From Basidiobolus ranarum (taxonomy: Eukaryota): a DNA stretch of 34,615 bases. Of this stretch, positions 508-33,947 are shown piece after piece. The notes beneath the pieces are model-generated. The model ran no database searches. It was not told the DNA's origin and saw nothing but the letters and a program-made list of their open reading frames with translations. The position numbers and the translations under genes are program-made. The DNA lies in contig JASJQH010006941.1 in assembly GCA_040143965.1 (NCBI GenBank), forward strand, positions 1 to 34,615, written 5' to 3'. Numbering within the stretch: position 1 is the stretch's first letter; every line of letters starts with the position of its first letter.

Positions 508-1231
508 GCCATATTGAATGACAAATATCATTTAGAGATTTCTAATAAAAATCGGTACAAATATCCTGTGTGGCTACTGAACACATTGCTACCTTGATTA
601 GAATCGTCCTTAGCAAAACATATTTGTAGTAAATGACAAATACTGATGATATTGTCTATAAATCCACGGCCTCAATATCATCTGTCTAAAATTCTTTTAG
701 TTGTATATTAGAAAAGATGATCGTGTTGGATTTATATCTAACCCGAATGTTGCAAATTTCAATTCCGAATCTCAGATCAAAGGGTTTGAAATACGAAGCC
801 ACATGATTGGATGATCCTTCTTCCATTGTTACATATCTGGAAGGGATCGTGATCATCTGGATACTCCAACCATATCATTATAAAGTGGAAAGCTGCGCAT
901 ACTAATAATCTGGTTGTCATTATATAATAAGCTTCGATTCAATTGATTTGATTATATCTATCCATTCTCCTTGTCCAATAGATAGTACTTATTACACACA
1001 ATTTCTTTAAAGATAGCGCGTGGCTCTTATCACCATATATTGGCAGTTGAATTTTTTTCAATCATATATAAATCCATTAAGTCCCTTTGGATCAGTTTCT
1101 CCCTGGGACTAAAACCTTCCCGTTCAACGCCAAATTTAACTTTAAAAATCTCACCTTGTTCTGTAACCCAATAACCTTCTACAAACGCTATCCTACCTCT
1201 TCTGAAATCTTCTAGAGATTCTAGAACAGTC

Positions 1232-2218
1232 ATGAATGAAAAAAGTTACCTTTTAACTTCTCAAAACCCAAAGTATGTTAATATAGAGAGCCAAATCATA
1301 GAGAAAGTTGCAGAGCTACCTCCCAGGATAACTTGCACTAAAATATGTGTTTGGCTAGTAGCTTTCATGGCATCTAGTGTGTTGATTCTTTTCCTATGTG
1401 TGGTCAACATTCCTTTGCCTATGCCGATGCAAGAACTCTTCACGGTATCACCTAGAGTACTATCTAATCACTCTCGTATTATTGTGGTAGGCGATGTCCA
1501 TGGAAGTTTGGAACCTTTCGAACGGTTACTTGAAAAATTAGATTTGAAAAAAGACGATACTCTAATTCTAGCTGGAGATATGGTTACTAAAGGACCCGAT
1601 TCCATTGGCGTTCTAAAAAGAGCCAAAGAAGTCGGTGCATTATGTATTCGTGGAAATCATGACAATACGGTCATTCGTTGGAAAGAGCTACTACTTCGAT
1701 ATGGTGAACATAAGATCAAAAAAAGGAAGTTACCACACGGACTACATATGAAAACAGAACATTATCGTTTAGCAAAGTAAGTAACAATCTCTTTTTATTG
1801 AATAACCAAGCTATTATCTAAGTAGTATCTTAGTGCTCTTCCAGACGATCTTTTCCAGTACCTGGAGTCTTGCCCAGTCATACTGTCGATTCCTCAATTC
1901 TCTATGTATGTTGTCCACGCTGGTTTGAATCCGTATTTGAGCATTGATCATCAGAAATCTAAGGATGTTATGAACATGCACAGCATTGTGGACCGAAAGC
2001 CTACAAAAAAGAAAGGTGTGGGCAAACCATGGTGGCATTTGTGGAATGTTGAGCAATCATCACATGCTCACCCTATGACAGTGGTATATGGACACGAAGC
2101 CAGTAAAGGACTTAACATCCAAGAATACTCTGTTGGATTAGATAGTGGATGTGTCAAGGGCAAAAGACTCTCTGCAATGATATTCCCAGAACGTACCTTG
2201 ATCCAGGTCAAGTGTTAG
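1232..2218 (+). CDS. Calcineurin-like metallophosphoesterase (Ppn2/ApaH-like) with N-terminal membrane anchor, ~309 aa; exons 1232-1776 and 1834-2218
   Basis: Motifs GDVHG, GDMVTKG, GNHD, VHAG, YGH, GLDSGC. Hydrophobic segment ICVWLVAFMASSVLILFLCVV. GT-AG intron 1777-1833 joins the two ORFs in frame. Confidence 0.85.
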
Positions 2219-4997: not shown

Positions 4998-6598
4998 GGT
5001 GTTTATCAGTTGCAAAATTCACCAATCAACAGTCTAGACATTAAAGTTTAGCTGCCGTTTCAAGTGGAGTAATATAGAACCTACCAATATAGAACAATGA
5101 CGTCGAAATCTCATGTGATACTTATTACCGTACATAAATGGAAGTTGCATTCTGGAAAATCTAACTTTCTATCACTGCATTAGTTATAATTTGATCCAAA
5201 ATCAGAATCGACAGGTCATGAAACCTTCGTTTCAGATTAGAGTTTAAATAATGGTACCTTTTGATGTAGTGTTCTCGATTGAAAATATTTCAATTAGGCT
5301 TTTGTTGAATTTCAAGTATATATTCCTTGTATTCAAGTGCGTTCTGTATTGAAGATAACCACATCACTATATGCTAAGGAATAATTGTTATGATTTTTTA
5401 TTTAGTATCTTACCAAAGTTTATCTAATCTATTAATGATTATCTTTATGGAGGAATAGTCAATAGCAAACCAGGCTTAGCTCTAGAATTAGTAACACACA
5501 GTACATATTTGCTCATCATTATTTAGGGCGCAAATCACCTCCTAAGCGGAGTTTCAATGTGAGATGGGGCTTCTGGAAGTTATGAATGCACGTGATGGTA
5601 CAATTTCTTCGTTTTCCCTCAACAAAACTGCTTCAATGAAACCTTATCTTGAAGTACTTGCTGCGCAACACATTGGCAAATTAGTTGCTAAAGTAATTCC
5701 ATTTTCAGGGTTTTCTAAACCATGTAATTCCTGGCATCTCTGAAGTGAAGTCAGAAAACTAGAGTAGTATTGTTCATAAAACTCAATCTCCGCCATGTTG
5801 CGAAGCAAGTCTAAAGGTCGTTCAGCTTCAGATATAGCATATTGGTTATCGATGTATTAACGTATTTTTCTATTTGTCTATCATCATTACTTATAATAAC
5901 GTTTCACATCAAAACCTACTGGGAAATTTAATGCAATAGCATATCGTAAACAAATCAGCTGTAGCTCTCACGTTGACAATTTGAAGAATTAGAGCTGCAA
6001 AGCGCTAAATATATAATGCTGATCTTATGTAGCTCAGGTTACCGTCGTTAATTGCTCCTTTAATAAGGAATTTATATATATACCAGAATATTTCTAGTGT
6101 ACCAGAACTTGAATATATTTAATAGTCTTGCATCTAGACGAAGCCATCATTCTTTTGAAGAACATTGATCGAGCAAAATTTTATCCATTTACAGAAATAA
6201 CCAGATATTGATTCCAAGAATCGTATTACTAACGATTAATAAATTTCTAGGTTTTACTAGGTCAATTTGAAATTACGAAACCTAGCACATGTAAAGATTG
6301 ATTTTATTTATACATACAACCATATTTGTTGAATACAGTAACCCATCAATAACTAAGAATCACATCTTACTAGGATTATCAGAGAGAGGTATAATCCGCT
6401 TCGTATCATTTTTCAACCGTCTCGCTTTAGCTTGGAAACATGCAAGTTGTTTTGGAAATTCACACTTTTGTTCCAAGGGCCAAACTTAACCATTTAAGTT
6501 TGATGAATATTGATTAAACTAATATAGACTTGAACTTGTTTAAGTCATCTTTAAATCTATGCAACCTAAAGGATGGAGTAAATAATACCCAAATCACT

Positions 6599-6861
6599 TT
6601 CCTAAGCATAACATTTCAGCGCTAATAGAGTCCAGAATACATCTAAATGAAAGGTGGATTATTAATACATATCCTCAAGGGTGTTTGAAGCAAAATCGTT
6701 ATCACACGTAAGCACATTTTATTTATCCAACAGAAGCAAAATCGTTATCATACGTAAGCACATTTTATTTATCCAACACCCTTGAGGATATGTATTAATA
6801 ATCCACCTTTCATTTAGATGTATTCTGGACTCTATTAGCGCTGAAATGTTATGCTTGGGAA
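6599..6861. repeat. Long inverted repeat (arms 6599-6685 and 6775-6861, 86/87 complementary) enclosing a 2 x 46 bp tandem repeat (6687-6732, 6733-6778)
   Basis: Direct base-by-base comparison. The single arm mismatch is T6603/G6857. The tandem copies differ at one base. Confidence 0.97.
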
Positions 6862-7241
6862 TGTTAGCATATCACAATGTCACGTTGCTTCAATAGTATT
6901 GTTATTCTTGATATTCACAAGAGTTAAATACTAAGTTTCTAGCATTATGTTGGAAATTATTCCAAATTACTGCTTAGTAAATTGAAAGGATTAAAAGAAT
7001 ACTACACACTTGGTATTTCCACTATGGATAATAGTATGGTAATAGCTCAACATCAAATAGACAGTAAATGGAGAATCTTGGCTCATTCGTACATAACACC
7101 TCAAATAACCAAATGCTAGAATATTTAAGGGGAAAGGAGTTATCTGTTGTAAAAGGTTAGCTACGGGATTTTCATCTTGTAATCTTTAGTAATTGAGGAT
7201 TCCTTCTTGAATCTTCCACATACCACGGAGTTAGCAATACA

Positions 7242-7628: not shown

Positions 7629-7681
7629 ATTGAGTGTAGACTTAACGTTACCTTACTTGATTGTAATCAGTGATACCAACA

Positions 7682-9715
7682 ATGCATAACATCGATCTCC
7701 TCTCAACAAACACTATACGTGTCCTTGCTGCCGACACCGTTAAGAAGGCTAATTCTGGACACCCTGGCGCCCCTATGGGTTGTGCAGCTATGGCCCATGT
7801 TCTTTTCTCCAAATTTATGAAGCTCAACCCAGAGAATCCCAAGTGGATTTCTCGTGACCGCTTTGTTCTCTCCAATGGACACGGTTGTACTTTACATTAC
7901 GTGCTTCTTCATCTTCTTGGATACAAAGTCACTATTGATGATCTTAAATCTTTCAGACAAATGAACTCTATATGCCCCGGTCACCCAGAAAACTTCATGA
8001 CCGAAGGTATTGAGGTTACTACTGGTCCATTAGGGCAAGGTATCTCCAATGCAGTCGGTCTCGCAATCGCCGAGGCTAACTTTGCAGCCACTTTCAATAA
8101 AGAAGCTTTCCCCGTCATAGATAATTATACTTATACTATCCTTGGTGATGGGTGCTTACAAGAAGGTGTCTCTGCTGAAGCAGCATCCTTAGCTGGTCAC
8201 CTCAAGTTAGGAAAACTCATTGCCTTGTATGACGATAATAAGATTCAGATCGATGGTACTACCGATTTAGCATTTACCGAGGATGTGTGCAAACGATTTG
8301 AGGCTTATGGTTGGCACACTCTTTCAGTCGACAATGGAGATAGCGACTTCGAAGCCATCGCCAACGCCATCTCTGAAGCCAAGAAAGTCACTGATAAACC
8401 AACCTTAATTAAGGTTCGCACCACCATCGGTTATGGTTCACTTTTGCAAGGAAGTGAAAAAGTCCATGGAGCTCCCTTAAGTAACGATGATTTGGTACAG
8501 CTCAAGACCATGTTTGGGTTGGACCCATCGCAGAGTTTCGCTGTGCCGCAAGAAGTAAGAGATTTCTATGGCGATATCAAGAAGCAAGGGTCTCAACGTG
8601 AAGCCGAGTGGAACCAAATGTTCGCAAAGTATTCTGCTCAATACCCTGAGCTTGCTCAAGAGCTTAACCGTCGTATTGCCAACGATCTTCCAGTCGGATG
8701 GGAAAGCGCTCTTCCAAGATATACTCCAGCTGATCCCGCAGTAGCCACTCGCAAGCTCTCCGAGATCGCTTTGAATAAGATTGCCGAAGCTGTCCCAGAA
8801 CTAGAGGGGGGTTCAGCTGATCTTACTCACTCGAATTTGACCAGATGGAAGACAGCGGTTGACTTCCAACATGAGAGTACTGGACTAGGAAACTACGCAG
8901 GCCGCTACATTCGTTTCGGTGTCCGTGAGCATGGTATGGCTGCCATATGTAATGGTATCGCAGCTTATGGAGGCTTCATTCCATTCTGTTCAACATTCTT
9001 GAACTTCATATCTTATGCACTAGGCGCTTCTCGTCTATCATCTCTCTCACATCTTCGTGTTCTCTACGTGATGACCCACGACTCCATTGGTTTAGGTGAA
9101 GACGGACCTACTCATCAACCTATTGAAACCCTCACCACTCTTCGTGCTACCCCCAACACTCTAGTCTTTAGACCTGCTGATGGTAATGAAGTCTCCGGTG
9201 CTTATTTGGCTGCTATCCAAAATAAATTGAGACCTAGCGTCCTCGCTCTCTCTCGCCAAAACCTCCCACATCTTGCTGGCTCTTCGATCGAGAATACTCT
9301 AAAGGGAGCTTATGTTCTTAGTGATGTTGCTAAACCCGCTGTCGTCCTCGTAGCTACTGGTTCAGAAGTTTCTGCTTGTGTTGAGGCTGCTCAGGAATTA
9401 GCCAAGTCTAACATCCAAGCTCGAGTTGTCTCTATGCCTTCAATGGAACTCTTTGATGAGCAGGCACAAACCTACAAGGAATCAGTTTTCCCTCGTGGTG
9501 TCCCAGTACTTAGTGTTGAGGCCTTGAGTACTTTCGGTTGGAGTAAGTACGCTCACGTATCAGTCGGTATGACTTCCTTCGGAAGCTCCGCCCCAGCCAA
9601 TCAACTCTATGAAAAATTCGGCATGACCCCAGTTGCCATTGCTGACAAGGCCATGAAGACCATTGAGTTCTACAAGAACGAGCCTTTACCATACCTCATG
9701 GTGAAGCCATTCTAA
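7682..9715 (+). CDS. TKL1: Transketolase, 677 aa, intronless
   Basis: SGHPGAPMG, RDRFVLSNGHGC, TTGPLGQG, TPP-binding GDGCLQEG...YDDN, THDSIGLGEDGPTHQP. First ATG at 7682 in ACAATG context. Confidence 0.98.
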   Translation: MHNIDLLSTNTIRVLAADTVKKANSGHPGAPMGCAAMAHVLFSKFMKLNPENPKWISRDRFVLSNGHGCTLHYVLLHLLGYKVTIDDLKSFRQMNSICPGHPENFMTEGIEVTTGPLGQGISNAVGLAIAEANFAATFNKEAFPVIDNYTYTILGDGCLQEGVSAEAASLAGHLKLGKLIALYDDNKIQIDGTTDLAFTEDVCKRFEAYGWHTLSVDNGDSDFEAIANAISEAKKVTDKPTLIKVRTTIGYGSLLQGSEKVHGAPLSNDDLVQLKTMFGLDPSQSFAVPQEVRDFYGDIKKQGSQREAEWNQMFAKYSAQYPELAQELNRRIANDLPVGWESALPRYTPADPAVATRKLSEIALNKIAEAVPELEGGSADLTHSNLTRWKTAVDFQHESTGLGNYAGRYIRFGVREHGMAAICNGIAAYGGFIPFCSTFLNFISYALGASRLSSLSHLRVLYVMTHDSIGLGEDGPTHQPIETLTTLRATPNTLVFRPADGNEVSGAYLAAIQNKLRPSVLALSRQNLPHLAGSSIENTLKGAYVLSDVAKPAVVLVATGSEVSACVEAAQELAKSNIQARVVSMPSMELFDEQAQTYKESVFPRGVPVLSVEALSTFGWSKYAHVSVGMTSFGSSAPANQLYEKFGMTPVAIADKAMKTIEFYKNEPLPYLMVKPF

Positions 9716-11319: not shown

Positions 11320-14300
11320 ATGAAAATAGAAAATAACTCTGACCAACCTACCACTATTTCCAATTCTTCACGCACACAATTCCACTCTGCTCCATATAGC
11401 ACTCTTCATACTGTTCGGACTCAATCCAACCTGAACTCTGTACTTGATTTTTATATTATATTTAAGTGAGAATTCAGAATAACATATTCTTTTCTTTAGT
11501 CAGTGGCGGGTTTCGTCAGAGATAGTGTCGACAGTTTTCAAAGTGGTAACAGCGATTTCGAATCTAGTTTTAATAATCGGTTTAGTGAAACAGATACTGT
11601 ACGTTTGATTGAACACATGGACATAGAGGAAGTTTCACTTTCCGACAATTCTAGTTCTACTAAACCTTCGAAATCCTTGCATACTCCGTCACGTTTGTAT
11701 TCAGTAGGAAAGGCTCTACACAGAGCCTCTACACGAGTTATTGAATTATCTACTACTCGTTTCGACCACTCACCATCCCCTTCACCCTATGAAGACTTGA
11801 ACAAAGAACCAGATGGAACCAACCCAGCTGACGAGCCTTACTCTCAGCCACATCGTCTTGGTGGCCGTTCCCTGTATATATTCGGACCCAACAATTCGCT
11901 AAGAGTATTTCTTGCAAAACTATTCAAAAAAAGGTAGTGTTGACAGTATCACCGCTTGATATTAACAATAATTAATTGTACGAATTGCTTTAGGTGGATG
12001 GGCTTTTTTATCACTTTTTTGATTATATTGAACTGGCTTTTACTATGCGTTCAATTCTGGGCCGCGGGGGTCCGAGACTATACTTTTGGTTCTAGTTGGG
12101 CTGATTACCCATTGTTTGCTATATTCATATTTTACACGTACGTGTTCTCCATGCTTGTTTGAATCGACACTATCTTTAAGCTGAATGGTCTGTATTGACT
12201 AATTCCTCGGTTTCATTGTTATTTAGGCTTGAAATGGTTGCCAGGATCATTATCTCCGGATTTATTATAAACCCTTCTGGACCTCAACTCAGAGTCCCGA
12301 GAGCAGATATTGGAAAAAAGTCACCGTTTCTCGTAGTAGAGGTTCATTCGGAAATAGATTCTCTCTTTCCTGATAGGGCGTATTTGCGTCATAGTTTCCA
12401 GCGGATAGACTTCGTAGTTGTTGTTTCATTTTGGGTTAATTTGATACTGTTGTTCACTGGACATGGTCGATTTACTGTGTTTAGTGCCTTGTGTGCTCTC
12501 CGCCCATTTCGTCTTATATCTATGACTTCAGGATCCTGGGTATGGGTTTATACATTCCAAGCCTTCTGAGTATATTAATGACCTTGTTTTTCTCTAAAGA
12601 CAATTTTAAGGTCTCTGAAGAAGAGTGCTCCGGTCTTAGTTAACGTTACACTTTTCCTGCTATCTTTTTTCTTGTTATTTGGGTACGTTTTCTACAATGT
12701 AGATTTCTCTTACGTAAAGGGATAATTAATGTCGTTTGTTTAATAGTATTATCGGTGTGGTTTCATTCGAAGGGTCGTTTGATCGACGTTGCGTCTCTAA
12801 TGGTTTGTTTTAAGCAAGTCGATATTTTGCGCGTATTATTTCCATAGTAACCAAACTTCTAGATATCCCTGATGATTTGGAGGATGCCAAAAAGTACTTC
12901 ACGATTCCTGAGCGATACTGTGGACATTATGACACTTTCACCAAGGGCTACGCATGCCCCGAGAATTTCAAATGCATGGTAAGTGTTGTTTTCTTGTTTA
13001 CATCTACATCCATACGATATCCCACTAATTATCAATTCCATTCTCTTCTGAAGAATGTTGGCAGTCCATTTGAAGGAACTCTCGGATACGACAACATTTT
13101 TCAGACTGTCCCAATTTTATTTGGTATCACAGCAGGTAAGTACGAAACTCAAATCAATCTCTCTTCATTGGGTATTGATTAGTTGTTTAGCGCAGGGATG
13201 GCTTTCATTGATGTTTCAAACCATGGATGCTGAATATCCATTGCCATCAGCCTTATACTACATCATTGGAGTCGTTATCTTTAATTTCTGGTTGCTCAAT
13301 TTATTCGTTGCGGTTATAACTGAAATGTTTGCCAAAATTCGTGAAGATACCAATCATAGCGCTTTCACTTCCTCAAGGTAAGGCATTTTATTATCAGTTA
13401 TGTCGAACCGAATGTTGGTAATTAATTCGAATTTTCTCAAGTAAAACTGCTATCGTTCTGAATGATGTTAACGAGGATGATAATCTCCAGGGACAAACGA
13501 AAGTTGCGCGCAAGCCTAATTTTCTTGAAAGAAACTTCGAGGCCACTTATTATTTTTGGATCCTCTTAGTAGCTGCTGATCTTGTAATTATGTGTGTCCG
13601 TTCGTATGATCCCGACGATGAAGAGGATGCTAAATTGGCAGACCCCACCATGAGTATGTTTTTTAAAATCCAGCACAAAGTAATGCGAACTCGACTAGAT
13701 TATATACTGAATTCCAATCTCTATCAGTTCAGGGAGAGTTTCTAACAGCCGAGCGTATTTTCACCGCATTGTTTGCAGTTGAGATACTCCTGCGTTATTT
13801 CGCTACTCCAAAACTTGGACGAAGATCTAAATTCTTTGCCTCCAAGAGAAACCGACTTGATTTGTTCTTAGCGGTTATAACTTGTATAATCCAGATACCT
13901 CCTATTCCCACTGTTTCCTCTGGAATGGTTTATCGATATCTCACTTTGTTCCAAGTAGTGAGATTTTATCGTATTGTTATGGCTATACCTCGTCTTCGCA
14001 GATTGATTGTTTGTACATTCTTACACTTTTTTTTGTCTATTGCTATTGACCAGTCTCTTTGTATTAGACTCGTACGGTTGGCAATGTTATTGGTATGATG
14101 AATTTGTTCCTTTTCATTTTGATGTGCATTGGAGTCAGCGCCACTGTGGTAAGAACTTCTCAACTTCATGAGTGTAATGTCTAATCACATCTAAGCCAAT
14201 GGATACATATTCAATAGGCAATGCAACTTTTTGGAGGACAAATAGGGCCAGATGACGACTTGGACATGAATTTTGACAATTTTGCCGCTAGCTTTTTAGC

Positions 14301-17300
14301 TCTTTTCCAGGCAAATCTAACATTCCATTTGAATTAGATATATCCGGTGTGTTAACCTATTTCAACTATTTTAGATATTTTCTGGTGATAACTGGACCGA
14401 TCTCTTATTTGGTTTAACTGGACTTCAGCGACAACACAACATGGCGGTGTTTTCATCCGTTTTTATACTGTTATTCTTTTGTTTCTCAAACTGTAAGTCA
14501 ACCACGTACTTCCATTTATCAAATGCCCTCTAATCTTTTCACTTCCTTTATAGTCATCTTGCTTAATATGCTCGTTGCCGTTATAGTAGAGAATTTTGAA
14601 ATGGACGAGGAAGAGAAACGTCGACTTCAACTTGAAGAAACCATTAAAGGAATTGAAATTAGGCAGAAAGAAAGCCAAAAAGTGATTAGGTAAATCAAGT
14701 CTAGTCAAACTCTTACTACTATATTTACTTATCAGCTCCTATTTAACACACATGTAGTCGATGGAATCCATATCGGTTTTTAAAGCCAAGCCCTAAAGCT
14801 CTTGCGGTGAATAATATCCCATCAAACCTTGTTTTGCCAGTTCAAAAAAGCGCTGCTCGCGAGTTTTTGCAAGAATCTAACTCGAAGGTAGGGATTTTTA
14901 CCACTTTAATATTCCGAAAATTGAACTTCCAAAACTTATAAATTCTCTACTTTCCAGGCAAATAGAGCACATTTGGAGAGGTCCAAATCGAAAGGATTTA
15001 CTTCCCGAGTTCGAAGGTTTTTGAAAATGGACCCCGATGAACTGGAGAATGGAAGCGCTAGTCATACAGTCTACGAACCTGAAAGTAGAGAGGAAAGATT
15101 TGTGAACGAATCTACTGATAACAAACGTGCGGATATGGATCAATACAATGAGCGCGAAGCAATTCTTAATGACTTTATGACGGCACATCCAACTTATGAT
15201 ACGTCACTTTTCATTTTCAAGAGAAACAACCCCATCAGAAGAATCTGTAAAAAGCTAGTGGGTAATTCGGATCCCTCCATTGAGAGTGTATCTTTTAATC
15301 ATTTTAAGCTAAGCCATGCGTTTAACGGACTGATTTTTGCTTGTGTTGTTGTGAGTGTTGTATTTGCTGTTCTAAATACTCCACTTGCACAGCAACAGAG
15401 ATTAATCCGCAAGTATGGCAGCTTAGAGGCTGCCCCAGTTAATCGTCGCGACATTGATTTGTTCTTTTGGATGGACGTTGCCATAACTACGATATTTACC
15501 CTCGAATTCTTGATTCGCGTCATTGCTGATGGGTTTATGTTTACTCCCGATGCTTATTGGCAAAGTATATGGAATCGAGTGGATTTCTTGGTTCTAATCA
15601 CCATGTACATTACGTTAGCAATCAATCCAAAGGAGCCCACAGGAATCCCAAGAACATTGAGAGCTGCTAAAGGATTTAGGGCTTTAAGAATTGCTAGCTA
15701 CTTCAATGCTGTTAGAGAGGTATTTTATGGTACTCTATATTCGGGATTTCCACGAATCGTTGATGCGGCAATGCTTTCACTTTGTTTCATTCTGCCATTC
15801 TCTATCTATGGCTTGAATATTTTTGCCGGACTCATGTATAGTTGTAACGACACAGCGGACACTATTGCAACTCGTGCAGATTGTAAAGGCCTATTCTTTG
15901 ACAGCGAAATGAATTTTTGGAAGCCACGGGTTTGGTCGAATCCAAATAATTTTAATTTTGACAATTTCAAGTCATCTCTCTTGGTTTTATTTGAGATTGT
16001 TTCGAACGAAGGTTGGGTCGATGTCATGTTGAATACGATGAAAATCAAGGGCTACAATGTTCAACCAGAGGATCGAAATGCTTGGTACAATGCAGTCTTC
16101 TTCATGTCCTACAATATGGTTGGCGCTGTATTTGTGTTGACTCTATTCGTCGCTGTTATCATTGAAAATTTCAACACCCGGAATGGAACCGCGTTCCTTA
16201 CAGCGGAGCAAAGAAGATGGATAGACATGAAAAACCAGTTAAAACAAATCAAGCCATCCATTCGTCCTGTTAATCCTCCAAGTGATAAAATTCGAAAATG
16301 GTGCTATGAAATGGCTATCGCAAAAAATGGATTTTTATCTAAATTTGTAGTTGGTGTTACCATCTTCGACGCTCTACTTCTTGTAACGCAATTCCATGGT
16401 CAACCTGAGAGTGTGAACACTGCCAAAGGTACACTTACCATTCGTCCGATTTTCAAATGAATTTTGACTAATATCAATCTCGCAGATATTCTATTTGGGA
16501 TGGTCTTTCTAGGTTACATGTTCGAGATTGGAGTCAAGTGTCTAGGGCTCGGTTTGAGAACGGTAGGTTATCTTCGATCTATTAAGCAAATGGAAGTTAG
16601 AATCTAATATCCTACATCATTACCCAGGTATTAATGAATCCATGGAATATATTCGATATTGTTATTACTTTTGGTCTTGCTGTTTCAACCCTTTCCCAGC
16701 TTATCCAAAAGTTCATTTTCAACACACCAAATGGATCTCGTCTTGCATTGAGGATATTCGTCACCCTCGTGCTATTCAAAGTTGTTCAAAAAGTTGATAG
16801 TTTACATCAACTTCTAAGAACAATGGCGTAAGTTCATCTTCCTGATATACGGCGTGGTATTTTTGAATAACACTTATTGTACTATTATAGTGTGAGTTTA
16901 AGGACCATTGTCAACCTGTTAGCCGTTTGGTTTCTGGTTTTTGTGATATACGCCATTGCTTTCATGGAGATCTTTAGCTTAACCAAGATGGGTGAGAATG
17001 GAGGAGCTCAGGCCAATTTCCGTAATTTCTCCAACTCTATATTGAATCTGTTGGGGATGTCTACCGGTGAAGGGTGGAATGATTTTATGCACGATTTTGT
17101 GACCCAAAATCCAGAGTGCGTTAGCTCAGCTCGTTCGTATTTAGAAACTGATTGTGGAAGTCCTGCCTGGGCCTACTTCTTGTTTATTTCCTTCAACATC
17201 ATTTCAATGTATATCTTTGCCAATCTATTCGTCGTTGTGGTAATGGACGGGTTCTCATACTGCTACCAAATCGCATCCTCATACTCTCTAATGAAGAGAG

Positions 17301-18686
17301 ATGACATCAGAAAATATCCTTTGAGTTGATTTTATATTTATCTAATGTCATTCATCTACGTTATAACCTTAACATACGCTTACTTTCAAGAAAGCATGGG
17401 GTGAAGTTGATATCAATGGTCACGGCTACATATACCAGAAAGATATAGTTAAACTATTTTCGGTAAGATATCCATTACTAGCGATTTCTACGTCAAGTGG
17501 TCCCCATTTTAACCATATAACATTTCAGAAACTATCCGTGCCGTTTGATGTCAAGATATATCCTGAACAATATTCCATCCCAGTTTTGCTACGTGACTGT
17601 CGGATCCAGGATAAGCCTGACATTACTCCCCAGCGTTCATTTAGGAAGAGCTCGAAGAAGAATGTATTCGAGCTCACTGATCAGCGGCCAGAATCCAAAC
17701 TCCCTGACCTAGCAACCTTGAATAGTCGCTTGGCTGATATAAACCCAACAGAAATACATCAACGAAAGAGAATATACAATATGGTTTATCAGGTTAGACG
17801 ATGGTTTGTGAGTTACAAATGACCTCTCTGCTAAACATTCGCTATGATCTGCGTATATAGGAAGCTATGGATCTAGGTGCAAATGGTCGAAAGATTGGAT
17901 TTACCAAGATGCTGTTACTACTATCCATTTATAAGCTGACTGATCCAGTGAAGAGCTTTTTGTAAGTTAATCCTGCATTCCTGTTAATTTGCACTACCGT
18001 ACTTACGATTGCTCATTCTTTAGACCCACAGACTACATAAAGCGTAAAGAGCGTGTGGATCAAATTGTGGATAAAGTTCGAATGGACACACTTAGGGGCT
18101 TCTTACGTATCGCTATTCAGAAAAAACGTATCCGTGAGATACGAATTCAAACTGAAAAGCATTCTGAGCTCAAGCCTGGAACTTCAAGAGAATTTCGAAG
18201 TAGAAGTGATTCAATTATTGTGTATGATTTAACTTCAACTCATCGCTTTAATTTCATCTAGAAACTCCCGTAAGACCAGAAATTAGAATTGAGAATGAGA
18301 GCTCCTCTTCCTCGGCAGATCCTCACAACCCCTTTTCTACTCCCGACAAAAAATCAACACATACCTTTGATGATGCATCACCATCTTACTCTCCATATCC
18401 GTAAGTTTCTCGCGTCGATTGTTACGAAAAAGCATACCCATAACCCCTTTTTATAGTACATACAGTGATGAAAGCGATGACGCTTGTAGTATTACTAGCT
18501 TAAACGATATGGATGTTGGTCAAGCCGATAATTTCTTGAGTGACTTCAGAAGTAACCAATGGCATGGTAAATATGATACTTTTCATCATGCTAATAAGTT
18601 AAGCTTGTACTAACCTTACCATAGATGCTCTGGTCGCCGAAACAATTGATCCGTATGAGAGTAGTACGTCTGAAGAAGATGAATAA
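11320..18686 (+). CDS. CCH1: Four-domain calcium channel alpha subunit (Cch1/NALCN clade), ~27 exons
   Basis: Four pore loops (ITAAQGW, IFSGDNW, IVSNEGW, MSTGEGW). S6 motifs LLNLFVAVI, LLNMLVAVIVENF, LTLFVAVIIENF, FANLFVVVVMDGF. LGGRSLYIFGPNNSLR N-terminal motif; AFLTAEQRRW linker. Exons joined by hand from ATG 11320 to TAA 18684-18686; the terminal exons are least certain. Confidence 0.93.
14311..14374 (+). other. Non-canonical GC-AG intron in CCH1 (domain II pore)
   Basis: CAG|GCAAAT...TTTTAG|ATA joins FLALFQ to IFSGDNW. Read-through hits TAG and no GT donor lies nearby before the stop. Confidence 0.85.
17314..17383 (+). other. U12-type (minor spliceosome) AT-AC intron in CCH1
   Basis: 5' site ATATCCTTT, branch site CCTTAAC at 17367-17373, 3' site TAC. 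Splicing gives DDIRNFKKAWGEVD in frame. Confidence 0.92.
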
Positions 18687-19208: not shown

Positions 19209-20955
19209 CTATGTATCGCGAGTGCCACTTTCGTAAACAGCTTTCACCGTCGGAAATCTCAACGAGATATTCGAAGAGCTTGAAGCCTTTTTATTTTTTG
19301 AAGGCTCAGTTTCGGAATAGTATTGCACCGTTATGGGTTTACCGATAATTAAAGAGGGATCGGCAGCGTATCGAATGCGCTGATCCAGGGTAAACCCAGA
19401 GCCAACGTTAACCTTGTTGTTTTTATATCTAATGATCACTGATCCTAATATCTCGCGCTCTTCATTACTTCCACGGACAACTAGATTCATCCTCGTCTTC
19501 TGAATATCCTCTACAATAAATTCCTCATCCTCCCACTGCTTGATTTTTAGAAGATTTCGGCTAAATAAAAGATTAATATATGAACAGATTTACAGCTACA
19601 AGTATGAGAGTGTACCTTCGTTTGCCTTCATATTCCGTATCTCTTCGAAGCATAAGTCCTTCCCAACGTCTTTCGAAAGCAATACTTTTTAGTTGTTGCA
19701 AATGTGCGAAATCTTTAACTTTAGTATGTTCCAGCAATTTAATTCTTGGATGATTATATCCTTTAAAAAGCTGATTGGCAAAGTCAAGACGTTCAGAAAA
19801 ACGCCTACTTGTCCCCTTCATTGAATATTCTTTTTGTGTCAAGACATCAAATACAAAGTAGAGAGGGTCACGGACTTGATGTTCATTACGAGTGATCTCT
19901 CGCATAATTGCCTGGAAATTCTCAACTTCACCTTCAGTACTACGACCATCTTTAAAGACGCATATCTCACCATCAAGCACTAACCCATCTTGAAGGGTTT
20001 GAACTAAGTCCATATGATTTGATGTCGAAATCAGCGATCTAATCGAGTCTACAACTTTTGATAGAGAAGAAAACTCGTTCCCCCTTCGTGAAAAGCACCT
20101 TATACTGAGCTCTTTAGAAGAAGGGTCGTTGGCCAACGAAACAAACGTTAAACAACGAATTCCATCCAGTTTTCGGGATGCATAAAAGGATCTTTGTGAG
20201 TTAAGGAATAGCGCTTTCTCTTCTGAGGGAAGTAAAGACTCAGCTAATGCAGTCTTGAAGTTTGCTATACTTCCCGGTTTGGCTCTATTTAAAAGTGCGG
20301 CACCCACACCAGTTCCTAAGTCACGATCTATAATATCGTATACGACGTCGTGATATTCTTCGGAGCAACACCTGTTCAAAAAGCTGAGGATAGCTCCTAT
20401 AGCATTTAAACCAGTGAGTTTTCGAGAGGATAAATCCTTTAGTAATTGTAGTAAATCTCGTGGGGGCTGATTGAAAACTCTAGTTTTTGAAGGTAATTCC
20501 TCAGCGTTCATCAGTTCCCGAACTTTCTTTGAATGAAGACCAAACGTGAGCTTCGGGTCGGATACAAAAGTTAATATAGGAAATAAATGTCGGTTTGATT
20601 CCAATATTTTAATCTTCTCTGTAATCGATTGAGTTCTCTTTAATTGTGTTTGAAGCTCAAGTAGTTGCCCTAAATCCTGGTCATTCGCTTTTAAAACATC
20701 ACAAAATTCTGAGGTCTTATAAATACGTGAACTACTCTCACACTTCCTACGAGTTGAGAAGAACCTTAAACCCGAAGGATAATTATATTGCGCATTTGCT
20801 TGTCTATGGAAGAAACCGCCCAGGTTGTTACAGTCTTTGGTTGTTAAGAAAGTTTGTCTAATTTTACCAACATTAGGTCTGGAAGTGGGTGTGCATTTGG
20901 AGTGGAGGAGAATTCTGTCCAACTGATTTGCCAATAAAGATATCCGTGTTTTCAT
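19209..20955 (-). CDS. ATP-dependent DNA ligase of T4-phage-like type with probable mitochondrial presequence, ~563 aa; exons 20955-19616 and 19560-19209
   Basis: Motif I SRKLDGIRC, Ia FSRRG, III VLDGEI, IIIa YFVFD, IV WEGLMLR, V YEGKRSRNLLKIK (across intron 19615-19561), OB-fold VGSGF, VI SLRFPT. Confidence 0.93.
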
Positions 20956-21402
20956 GCTAGTCAAAACCCAAGGCCTCTACAAACCTTTAAATCATCAAAT
21001 TACCCAGCTATTTTTTCCATCCAACAAATTTTGCGATGTAATTTTGACATCCAAACTAATTTATAGCGATCGAACTAAAATTTCAAATGATTACAGGTGA
21101 CGGCTTTACAAGATGTTTGTAACTTATGTAGGATTGAAAATGGTTCTAGAATGCGATACGAACTTCGAACTAACTCAAGTTCACTGATTCGCCTTCAAGC
21201 GTCTACCTACCATATTCCTGTATAGAAGGGATCATAGAAGTCTGGGTTTTTTTTTCAACCGTATCATTCTGGATTACCGATCTAGCCTTATTCAAATGTG
21301 CTCAAATAGCCTTAAGTGGTAGATCTAGATTTAGTTTTGATTTGGCCTACACTTCCCTATAAAATCAGACTAATGTCTAGTATTTTTATGTAACTCAAAA
21401 GC

Positions 21403-22901
21403 ATGACCATGTCCAATATCTCCGAGAAACGCGCATCAAAGGAAGAAGGGCAAGCTTGCAAAAGAGCCAAGGCTACCATTTCAAACACATTCAACCCCCG
21501 CTACTACGAGTCGGATTTCGTAAACGGTTTCAATCGCGGCTTCACTACCCGCATCCCTTTCTGTGATACTCCCGACAAATCCCAAGCTTATACCCTTGGA
21601 TATCCTTTCCGAGCAGGCGCTTTAAGTAACGTTTTTGATGAGGATTTTTTGAAGGAAGTAAAAAAGGAACTTCTCGGTGATGTATTTTATCATAAATCTA
21701 ATGATTTGTACGAGTTTTTCCAATCTGAAGACTTGAAACTCACAAAGAAGCCCTATTTATCTGCTCTAAGAGAAGCTATATATAGTCCGGAATTCGTTCA
21801 GCTTATGACACGGTTGACAGGCATCAAACTCAATTCAACTATCGACCTCGCGGGTCAGCGTTATAGCGACAAATCCTTTTTACTATGCCACGACGATGAT
21901 GTTCGTAATGAAAATGAAGGTCGACGCATTGCTTTTATTATTTACTTAGTTCCTGAAGACTGGTGCGAAGAAGATGGTGGATTACTCAGTTTGTATTCTA
22001 CGTACGTATTTTCAATATATCAATGCATCTATATCAATTGACTCGTTATTAAACTTCTTGAACTTGTAGTGATTTAAAAGATCAACCCGCAGAAGTGATA
22101 CATTCTATTGTTCCTAAATGGAACTCTGTCGCTTTCTTCCAAGTTGGAACCACTTCTTTCCACGAAGTGACAGAGATTCTTACCGCATCTAAAGACCGTA
22201 TTTCCATCACTGGTTGGTTTTACGGTACTAATGATGATGTTTCCGAGGATCCTTCTCCTGAATATCAACTATTGAAATCTGTCCCTTCTCAATCGATAGA
22301 GCAATGGATAAATCCTCAATATTTGAATGATGGCGCAAATAATCAAATTTCAGACATCTTTTTGGAACAATCAAGCGTGGAGCTTCAACATTTCTTGCGT
22401 TCGGATGTGTACGAGCAAGTTGAAAAAGCAGTGTCTAGTGCGTCTTGGACTCGTCAAATAGGACCTGCTCACGCTCGTCGCTTCAGACGGATTGACTTTG
22501 AAAATTCTCCTGATTCTACAATCCTTAAGTCTCTAGAAGCATTCCTCCAATCCGAAGAGTTTGGTCAATTTCTTTGCAAGATTACCAATCTTGAACTTCG
22601 TCATTCCTCTTGCGAGACTCGAGTTTTCGGGAAAAGTGAATACACAATGTGTAACGACCAGGCTATCGAAAAAGATGGTCTCGATGTTGTACTCTCTCTG
22701 ATCAACGATGAATGGAAGGAGGAATGGGGAGGTGCCACCCATTATGTAGCCGAAGAAGAAAATCTCTTAACATTATGGCCAACCAAAAATACCCTTTCGT
22801 TAGTTCTTAGAGATGAAGAAACATTAAGATTTGTCCGTTATGTTAACCACCATGCTGAGCTGGAGAGACGTGAGGTTTCGTTAATTTTTACTGAAAATTA
22901 A
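21403..22901 (+). CDS. OGFOD1: Prolyl 3-hydroxylase of the OGFOD1/Tpa1/Ofd1 family (2OG-Fe(II) oxygenase), ~476 aa; exons 21403-22001 and 22070-22901
   Basis: KSNDLYEFFQSEDL, LLCHDD (HxD), RRIAFIIYLV, SFHEV, RISITGWF, followed by a degenerate second DSBH domain. GT-AG intron 22002-22069. Confidence 0.92.
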
Positions 22902-25691: not shown

Positions 25692-26818
25692 CTAGACCTG
25701 TGCATCCAAGTGTTCGCTAGAATGGATCCTCTGACTGGGAAAATCAGTTTCCCAGGCAGGGGGGTAGTGGTAAATGGACCATTCTAAGAAAAATACTTTC
25801 TTGACCCAGTGAGGTAGCCTGGAAAATAAAGAGGATGGCATAGGGATTACGATGCTGGTTGCGTTCAAATAGTCCTTATAGGACGAGAATTCGGGACTTT
25901 CGTAGAATTTCTTTTGCGTGGGTTTCTCGACGTAAGGGAGACCGGAAAGAAACAAAAGAATAAACATGGTAAATAGTGGGCTAGCAATGGCAGCCCATCC
26001 TGCCGAGATTCCACTTGATAGAGTAGGCTGAAGGCTGAGCAAGAAAATACCCCACCATAGTAAGATTTCACCAAAATAGTTGGGATGTCGTGAAACAGAC
26101 CACACCCCAGTGCGAATGAAATCTAAAGGACCAGATCTATTTGAATAGTGATGATTCTTTTGTAGGTCAGCCACTTACAACAATTTAAAGTCAGCAAAGA
26201 GTTGAAAATCCATCAAAGGCAAACACAACCAACCTGCTTCAAACAAAAATCCAATAGCCCAGAATACAATCCCGATGATATCCGTTGCACTGCCGAATGT
26301 AGGATCGTACTCAGAGAGTTTGTACGAGTTAAGAAAGGTAACAGGTAAAGATACTGTCCACACCCATACCATCTGGGCAATCCAAAATCCAAGGAACGAA
26401 AAAAACTTTTCACGGATTCCATCAAAACGTTGGTCGTTGTTGGTTTTTATGATGCGATACAGCTGATTACCTACAAGAATGAGTTAGTATCAACTTGGTT
26501 TGAATAACGAAAGAAGTAAGTACCAGCTAAACGACAGCCCCAAATAGCAACGAGTATGAGAGCGACAGTTTGACGAGTATGATAGACCTAAATATTAAAT
26601 GATGAATAATGTGTAGCATGTTCTAGATGGTTGATTGCACTTACTTCGCATAGAAAGTACGTTAGCAAGGCGAGTATCACGAAATTGGATCCGCCTGCAA
26701 AGTCTGTTACTTTGTCAAATTTGAATGTGTAAGCCACGAGAAAGAATATCAGTTGATATCCGATGGTGACAAGCAGTGTGAGAGCAAGGTAGAACTGATC
26801 CAGTACAAATATACTCAT
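25692..26818 (-). CDS. DUF1295 / steroid 5-alpha-reductase-like membrane protein, 4 exons
   Basis: FDKVTDFAGGSNF, WGCRLAG, DQRFDGIR, QMVWVWTVSLP, ADLQK, GVWSVSRHPNYFGEILLWWG, SGLPYVEK. Three GT-AG introns join the frames. Confidence 0.92.
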
Positions 26819-31266: not shown

Positions 31267-33947
31267 ATGAGTTTGTACTGTCGCTCGTTTTTGCGTACGA
31301 CTCTTCGTGCTCCATATGGAAAGCGCTACCTAGCAACTATTACACCCTCACCAACATTACTCGATAATTCCAAATATGATGTTGTTGTCATTGGTGGAGG
31401 TCACGCTGGGTCTGAGGCCTGCGCCGCAGCAGCAAGAACCGGTGCCAAAACACTCCTATTGACCCATAAGTTCGAGACGATTGGTGAAATGAGTTGCAAT
31501 CCTTCTTTTGGAGGAATCGGCAAGGGGATTTTAGTGAGAGAAATTGACGCATTAGACGGTTTATGTGGTCGGATATCAGGTCAGGTGCTATTGTAGATTT
31601 TGTACTTTGGAGTCCAACTAACACTTTTATACTTATAGATAAGGCTGGTATTAACTTTCGGATTTTGAATCGTTCTAGAGGACCAGCAGTCCACGTAAGA
31701 AATCTGTTATCATTTAATCGCTTTTTTGCATAAAGGTGACTCAACTATATATATCCAGGGTCCAAGAGCTCAAATCGACAGAAAACTTTACAAACAGCAT
31801 ATGCAAGAATGCCTCTCTAACTATCCGAATCTCTCTATCAAAATTGGTGGTGTATCAGATATCATTGTTGAAGAGCCAACTGCTTGTAACAATAATGAAG
31901 AGAAGAAATCTGTGTACGGTCAAATTAAGGGTGTTAAGCTGGGTATGTTTCTTGTGATCCTGCATTTTTACATTGAATATTAATCTTATTACGATAAAAT
32001 AGAATCTGGTGAAGTCATTCAAGCCGAAAAAGTTGTAATTACTACCGGAACATTCCTGCAAGGAGAGATTCATATTGGTATGAATTTCCATGTTGAAGAA
32101 CCAAAGAGATCGTTTGTACTCATCTTTGTTTATTCAAAATTTCATAGGAATGACTTGTTATCCTGCTGGGAGAATTGGTGAAAAGGCAGCTGTTGGGCTC
32201 TCTAATTCTTTGGAAAAAGCTGGATTCAGACTTGGAAGACTTAAAACAGGCACTCCACCTCGTCTAGATGGACGTACCATTAACTATAAGGACTTAATCC
32301 CTCAATATGGAGATGTGCCTGCTAATCCTTTCTCCTTTCTCCATGATAGCGTTCCATTAGAGGTATTTTGTTATTTTAATATTGCATTCTAGCCTTACAC
32401 AAACACTTGTATTAATTTTACGAAACAGAAAGAACAAATTCCTTGCTTTCAAACGGGAACTACATCGGAATCTCATAAAATCATCATGGAAAATCTTGAC
32501 AAAAGCATTCATATTCGGGAGACAGTCAAGGGACCCAGGTATATATTTTTATTCCAAGGTGTGCATGGTACGGGCTTACTCAACATTACTGATTTCTTAG
32601 ATACTGCCCATCAATTGAATCGAAGGTTATACGCTTCGCGAATAAGCCTTCTCACATGGTGTGGCTTGAACCAGAAGGTTGTTTGTTTATATGTACATCT
32701 ACATGTCAGCAGGCATGATCGATTTTTATCAAATCACTAACATCGAAGTTGTAATATCCAGGACTTGATACTGATGTTGTCTACCCCAATGGTATCTCGA
32801 TAACCCTTCCAGAAGAATATCAACTAAAACTTCTTCGTACAATTCCGGGCTTAGAGGACGTAACAATGCTTCGTCCTGGTTAGTGCACTTCAATTTCTGG
32901 TTTAATTTTCGACGCTCGCTAATTTATGGTAAAGGTTATGGTGTTGAATATGATCACATTGATCCACGTGAGCTGTATCCTACATTGGAGACTCACAAGA
33001 TTCGAGGCCTTTATATGGCGGGACAAATTAATGGAACCACAGGCTATGAAGAGGCTGCAGCTCAGGTATGTTGTTCAGGTTCTATATTGATGCTATATAT
33101 GGTTATTCATCTATTTTAGGGTATTATGGCCGGTGTTAATGCTGCTTTGGCCGTCCAAAACAAGTCACCATTGATCCTTGCCCGAGCTGATGGCTACATT
33201 GGAGTATTAATTGACGATCTTATTAATAAAGGAGTCAGCGAACCCTATCGAATTTTCACCGCTAGATCCGAGTATCGTCTGTCATTACGTGCTGATAACG
33301 CAGACATCAGACTGACTCGTAAGGGGTATGAGGCAGGTTGCGTTGGTGAAAGCCGCTACTTGCACTACCTTCAAATGGAAGAGCAACTTCTCAAGGGATT
33401 AGAAGCAATGGGTCAATATGAACTTACCCCTAATCGATGGGGCGACTATGGATTTACGGTAAATCAGGATGGAGAGCGTAGAAGTGCCCTAAGAATGTTG
33501 AGATATGCTGGTGCACAAATATCAGACTTTGAACCGTTCGTTCCTGGTATTAAAGAGTTGTCCACAACTGTTAAGAATAAGATTGCTATTGAAGGTACAG
33601 AAACTTTGCTTTAAGATCTAAGTTGAGGTTATATATTTACGTTAATTGTAGGCTTATATAGCGGGTACCTTGAGAAACAAAGTGTTGAAGTAAAAGCCTT
33701 CCGTCGTGACGAATCCATTCAAGTACCTGAAGATATGGACTATGACAGCCCTAGTCTACAATGTCTTTCAGCTGAAACACGTGAGAAATTGAAGCTGATT
33801 AAGCCTACCTCTTTGGGAGCCGCTAAACGTATTGATGGAATGACTCCTTCGAGTGTCATTGCTTTACTCAAGCATATTCAAAAACGTCAAAGAGCACTTA
33901 ATTGGGCCCAACGCCAGAGTACACACGAAGGCACTTTATCACAATAG
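31267..33947 (+). CDS. MTO1: Mitochondrial tRNA U34 modification enzyme Mto1 (GidA/MnmG), ~11 exons
   Basis: Arg-rich presequence; [78 protein letters not shown]. Confidence 0.97.

Follow-up and report, generated by a model that had tools for sequence, protein, structure and literature searches.

A U12-type AT-AC intron in Basidiobolus ranarum Cch1, just past the S6 segment of channel domain IV

The conserved U12-type intron of the animal Nav1, Nav2, and Cav1-3 channel genes is located in domain I S1 (Fux et al. 2018, PMC6259924). As described there and in PMC3557258, NALCN is without this D1S1 U12 site, and no match to NALCN was found in eight supplementary files of a paper on human and mouse minor-intron genes (PMC6717393), according to which mouse Cacna1 genes often carry a second minor intron. 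The presence of the minor spliceosome in the genus Basidiobolus has already been published and is not a new finding of this study: B. meristosporus was reported to have 249 minor introns, corresponding to 0.554% and the highest density in fungi (Larue & Roy 2023, PMC10639083), and a count of 237 was given by Olthof et al. (2024, PMC11347168). For U6atac, a CC variant with [GU]CCGA in place of AAGGA was described as hard to explain by Davila Lopez et al. (2008, PMC2396436), who listed it from Trichoplax, cnidarians, a sponge, Acanthamoeba, Physarum, Physcomitrella, and oomycetes. The two fungi in that report, Rhizopus and Phycomyces, have the AAGGA box.

We analyzed a 34,615-nt stretch of B. 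ranarum DNA (assembly GCA_040143965.1, contig JASJQH010006941.1, positions 1 to 34,615 of the forward strand), referred to below as the window, which contains a Cch1 gene with an intron predicted to be of the U12-type AT-AC class (Table 1). The 5' border of the intron is AA/ATATCCTTTG and the 3' border is AC/TTTCAAG, the intron ending with TTAC, and its first nine bases conform to the U12-type 5' splice site RTATCCTTT. Near the 3' end, a box conforming to CCTTRAC is separated from the terminal AC by 10 nt (ATACGCTTAC), and a pyrimidine tract is absent. The branch box reads ACCTTAAC, without the upstream T of TCCTTAAC, and the branch A would be either 17371 or 17372. The U12 5' site, the distance of 10 nt between the box and the AC end, and the lack of a polypyrimidine tract had all been given in the original prediction, which was exact to the base.

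Table 1. Positions of the features in the window and of the rival GT-AG junction.
Feature	Position	Strand	Remarks
Metallophosphoesterase	1175-1777		Pfam match
Single-ORF transketolase	7667-9715		Pfam match
Cch1 four-domain channel gene	11320..18686	+	About 1895 aa in model, 309 aa past AT-AC junction
GT-AG intron with major-type signals	11934..11993	+	Phase 2; just before domain I S1, 13 residues before S1 Asn
Exon upstream of AT-AC intron	16891..17313	+	Domain IV S5, pore loop, and S6
Rival in-frame GT-AG junction GTG/GTAATG ... TTTCAAG/	17240..17390	+	Would delete 29 codons including IVS6 end
U12-type AT-AC intron	17314..17383	+	Intron 20 of 26 in gene model, 70 nt; phase 2, splitting Asn codon ahead of FKKAW
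5' splice site ATATCCTTT	17314..17322	+	
In-frame TGA met on intron retention	17327..17329	+	KYPLS-stop
Branch box CCTTAAC	17367..17373	+	
Exon downstream of AT-AC intron	17384..17462	+	Start of proximal C-terminal segment, aligns with Cav 'DEFKRIWAEYD'; weak GPHH match, below cut-off
ATP-dependent DNA ligase domain	19576-20976	minus	Pfam match
Ofd1/2OG-Fe(II) oxygenase	21394-22898		Pfam match
DUF1295	25695-26174	minus	Pfam match
MnmG/GidA	33120-33611		Pfam match

The pattern ATATCCTT-N30-60-CCTTAAC-N7-14-AC had one match in the window, as compared with a mean of 0.02 in shuffled sequences (2 of 100 shuffles matched). Sites matching RTATCCTY occurred 12 times on the two strands of the window, and the site at 17314 was the only one with a motif resembling the branch box in the following 100 nt. 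A relaxed scan for further U12 introns yielded two more matches in the window, at 21600 (plus strand) and 20943 (minus strand), which were set aside because both were within long open frames with Pfam hits.

The model of the Cch1 gene was constructed by mapping the public model P0001 on the window and then extending it by homology. It contained 26 introns, consisting of 24 GT-AG introns, one GC-AG intron (14311-14374), and the AT-AC intron, which is followed by six others. Four Ion_trans stretches were detected by Pfam, as in a four-domain channel of the Cch1/NALCN type. The large exon at 14925-16457 showed 99% identity with P0001, the next matches being Cch1 proteins of Basidiobolus and other fungi, and the best solved match to the B. 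meristosporus ortholog, P0002, was NALCN (E 5e-115). From just before the AT-AC junction to the C-terminal end, the B. ranarum sequence was 69% identical to P0002. The tail of P0001 was found to be misread, in that it continues into a GT-AG intron (18200-18261) and ends prematurely; with 18200-18261, 18401-18456, and 18567-18624 all spliced out, the Cch1 tail matched P0002 to its end.

The AT-AC junction is positioned just past domain IV S6, in a segment aligning with Cav 'HHLDEFKRIWAEYD'. Removal of the intron in phase 2 gave the translation ...MKRDDIRNFKKAWGEVD... (DDIRN-FKKAWGEVD), and read-through gave ...DDIRKYPLS followed by the TGA, four codons into the intron. Translation thus reproduced the predicted restoration of the frame on removal of 70 nt and the predicted stop at TGA 17327-17329 on retention. 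When 120 homologs were compared, the junction was ungapped in 107 of them (including P0106, which had no BLAST match and may be spurious), and the first full codon downstream encoded F in 75, Y in 29, and L in 3. The region was broken exactly at the junction in nine homologs and was lacking in the other four. The signals and the homologs both agreed with the prediction that the Cch1 gene of this early-diverging fungus contains an AT-AC intron of the U12 type; the intron is real, of a known kind, and expected in a genus rich in minor introns. A literature search found no description of this Cch1 intron, which may be listed in per-intron catalogues.

More than one other Cch1-like gene was present in the genome. 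The close paralog (C953), which is rich in introns and of which C9088 may be the 5' part, had a 71-nt AT-AC intron in the same codon and phase, with both ATATCCTTT and TTCTTAAC retained and the middle diverged. Read-through of the paralog intron gave KYPFNS-stop, in place of the KYPLS-stop of the gene at 11320-18686. The AT-AC intron is older than the duplication that gave rise to the C953 paralog. The distant Cch1-like copies (C57 and C276/C356) were approximately 39% identical and had few introns in the 3' half.

These data also bear on the idea that the major spliceosome acts on a GT-AG junction at this place, either 17240^17390 or 17325^17394, and that the AT-AC signals are vestigial, which we consider extremely improbable. 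In-frame options for such splicing do exist, as 20 GT/GC-AG alternatives could be drawn on paper, but each of them either loses conserved residues or exchanges NFKKA for KYPLT by means of a weak donor. The donor at 17240 (GTG/GTAATG) is a fair one, and the public model of the paralog, P0003, shows a skip of this type; however, the 29 codons removed by 17240^17390, which include the end of IVS6, are kept by 107 of the 120 homologs. The junction 17325^17394, which would change NFKKA to KYPLT, has an acceptor that is not YAG and the donor GTTGAT, the GT of which is missing in the paralog intron. Furthermore, within the intron the U12 signals are conserved between the paralogs and the middle is not, which argues against vestigial signals.

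The nine homologs broken at the junction were divided into two types. Four models read through the site and run into Y-P-F after R-K or R-Q codons, Y-P-F being the translation of ATATCCTTY: P0004 (B. meristosporus), P0009 (Funneliformis), P0018 (Choanephora), which ends there, and P0047 (Halteromyces). The other five skip the site, namely P0003 (the B. ranarum paralog), P0007 (Ambispora), P0008 (Geosiphon), P0010 (Cetraspora), and P0028 (Absidia). All nine belong to Basidiobolus, Glomeromycotina, or Mucorales, and none is from Dikarya or Mortierellaceae. Because errors of reading through or skipping recur at this site in models from Basidiobolus, Glomeromycotina, and Mucorales, we infer that the intron is old in fungi. 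These protein models and their annotation errors make it probable that Glomeromycotina and Mucorales have the intron at this site as well, in which case it would predate the split between Basidiobolus and Mucoromycota.

It had been expected that standard gene predictors would mis-model this junction. This warning failed for the gene itself, because DDIRNFKKAW is already present in the public models of this gene and its ortholog (P0001 and P0002), but it was appropriate for the nine homologs, among them the paralog in the same genome. The AT-AC junction thereby breaks nine of 120 public Cch1 models, leaving them with a truncation, a read-through, or a gap where IVS6 ends, and therefore studies of calcium channels from early-diverging fungi should re-splice this site.

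The intron was not found at this site in the Cch1-like genes C57 and C356 of the same genome. A metagenome scan for homologs gave seven loci, four of which were examined (L048, L049, L050, and L054). The intron was absent from L048; L049 and L050 had none at this site, and the intron that they carried was situated some 12 codons upstream and had major-type ends. The remaining examined locus, L054, was unconvincing as a homolog.

A covariance search of the genome detected one gene for each of the four minor snRNAs, all of full length: U11 (84.6 bits), U6atac (66.3 bits), U12 (49.4 bits, E 2e-7), and U4atac (46.6 bits, E 2e-5). The scores of U11 and U6atac were above the Rfam cut-off, and those of U12 and U4atac were below the gathering score of 53. 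In computed duplexes, the 5' end of the genome's U11 paired with positions +4 to +9 of the intron (6 bp, -5.3 kcal/mol), and GUAAGG of U12 paired with the branch box (-9.8 kcal/mol, including CCUUA/UAAGG). The U4atac/U6atac duplex had an energy of -29.9 kcal/mol, whereas the mean of shuffled sequences was -19.1 kcal/mol, and only 1 of 500 shuffles reached the observed value. Candidate proteins of the minor spliceosome were searched for with three Pfam families; zf-U11-48K, PDCD7, and Ubiquitin_4, which may correspond to 48K, 59K, and 25K, each had a match at or over the cut-off in the genome, all being single-domain matches. The presence of U11, U12, U4atac, and U6atac in this organism, as originally inferred, was thus supported by all four genes, with U12 and U4atac under the cut-off. 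The same snRNA picture is given for B. meristosporus in Table S7 of PMC11347168, where U11 and U6atac are of high confidence and U12 and U4atac are below threshold.

The strict U12 pattern matched the genome 124 times (52 forward and 72 reverse), in comparison with 12 matches in the control (9 and 3). Some 5' sites are repeated among the reverse matches, and the number of distinct U12-pattern sites was estimated at approximately 100 from 100 of the 124 matches. Thirty loci with the pattern were fetched and represented 24 distinct ones, 13 starting with AT and 11 with GT. The minor introns described for B. meristosporus are from the same genus and have the same consensus, and the ortholog P0002 of that species has the same junction sequence; the species is a different one.

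The sole U6atac found (L003:1501-1634, corresponding to G000:C89:21836-21969) had GUCGA at the position where the Rfam consensus has AAGGA, the canonical box complementary to +4 to +8 of the 5' splice site. By inspection, in the canonical register the GUCGA box pairs with +4 and +5, is mismatched at +6 and +7, and forms a wobble at +8. The box is one base off the [GU]CCGA of the CC variant. The published account of the CC variant (PMC2396436) and the B. ranarum U6atac are alike in that the box pairs poorly with ATATCCTT, the pairing with U4atac is intact, and one copy was found; they differ in the box itself ([GU]CCGA as against GUCGA). The U12 introns of this genome are canonical. A second, canonical U6atac was found neither by a DNA search nor by a covariance search in which 45 of 2894 candidates were scored, both giving lower bounds. 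Among the papers listed in a literature search for variants of the U6atac box, PMC2396436 was the relevant one and no fungal report appeared, which is weak evidence of absence. We consider it likely that the sole U6atac, with its GUCGA box, is indeed unable to pair with the 5' splice site in the textbook manner. If so, a culturable fungus with about 100 or more canonical U12 introns would be available to test a question open since 2008. With the GUCGA box, the puzzle of how a variant U6atac engages a 5' splice site of canonical sequence now includes a fungus that has many minor introns.

Folding of U6atac with the 5' splice site gave a duplex of only -3.2 kcal/mol, in a shifted register through a GAGAG stretch, and was set aside. 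A class of introns matched to the GUCGA box was also rejected, as RTATCGAY with a branch box had 12 matches in the genome as against 23 in the control. In the RTATCGAY search, we observed a repeated family of about 78 bases (C786, C1367, C7179, C7548, and C7565), which is probably a dispersed repeat.

From the sequence evidence, it is highly probable that the intron at 17314-17383 is an ordinary U12-type AT-AC intron of B. ranarum Cch1 that is spliced mostly constitutively in vivo. In the proposed mechanism, U11 would pair with ATATCCTTT and U12 with CCTTAAC, bulging the branch A, after which U4atac/U6atac.U5 would complete splicing at the AC located 10 nt past the box. Splicing would restore the conserved helix following domain IV S6 and the 309-residue tail. 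Since the stop met on retention lies four codons into the intron and precedes six further introns, the retained RNA would most likely be degraded, as in nonsense-mediated decay.

A regulated switch, as suggested in the original prediction, in which slow or condition-dependent minor splicing sets the level of full-length Cch1 through decay of the retained RNA or through a tail-less channel with a complete pore, appears unlikely to us. The stop comes just after IVS6 and would leave all four domains intact; however, any short intron rich in AT would be expected to run into an in-frame stop early on, and the read-through differs between the two copies (KYPLS-stop and KYPFNS-stop) beyond the Y-P dictated by the splice site. 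The intron has been kept in the paralog and apparently in several fungal lineages, but it is absent from C57, C356, and the metagenome locus L048. The variant box of U6atac could weaken catalysis, and rate-limiting U12 splicing has been proposed in animals (PMC4615840), whereas in Rhizophagus minor splicing was reported not to be raised in proliferating cells and retention was only modestly higher (PMC10639083). A joint reading would combine these elements: a fungus-specific AT-AC intron located where the last pore helix meets the tail, kept since the split between Basidiobolus and Mucoromycota, would tune the dose of the channel or yield a tail-less form by way of the U6atac with the GUCGA box. 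This control-point reading is improbable because of the part concerning regulation.

We also compared the position of the AT-AC intron with those of the animal channel introns. The second minor intron of the mouse Cacna1 genes is in domain II. The animal Nav/Cav D1S1 intron, as described in the literature cited above, and the Cch1 intron are alike in being AT-AC minor introns with the same consensus in genes of four-domain cation channels. They differ in position: S1 of domain I harbors the animal intron, and the Cch1 intron, past domain IV S6, aligns to Cav 'HHLDE-F'. Because the positions differ, the Cch1 intron is not the domain I intron of animal Nav/Cav genes; homology to that intron was ruled out, and the analogy with animal Nav/Cav hosts in the original prediction does not hold in this sense.

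The Cch1 gene also has an intron just before domain I S1, at 11934-11993, and at its site the R-W of the ortholog aligns without a gap to K-P of Cav1.3. We take the animal Nav/Cav U12 intron to be positioned at this site. The intron at 11934-11993 is thus probably at the same site as the animal U12 intron, and a switch of intron class may have occurred at this common position. No match was obtained when the S1 exon by itself was searched against PDB.

The evolutionary value of the AT-AC intron is modest: it is a minor intron of a channel gene in a NALCN-related lineage, at a site other than that of the animal intron and apparently common to Basidiobolus, Glomeromycotina, and Mucorales. What is added to the known systems, likewise modest, is its apparent conservation across early-diverging fungi, the recurring annotation error, and the variant box of U6atac.

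Outside the Cch1 gene, the window had Pfam matches to six other features (Table 1). An open frame at 1-507, which runs off the start of the window, encodes Ser/Glu-rich short repeats. Between the metallophosphoesterase and the transketolase, a 269-base element at 6596-6864 contains two direct repeats of 46 bases, enclosed by inverted arms that are 93 bases long and 97% complementary, and looks like a small element of the foldback or MITE type.
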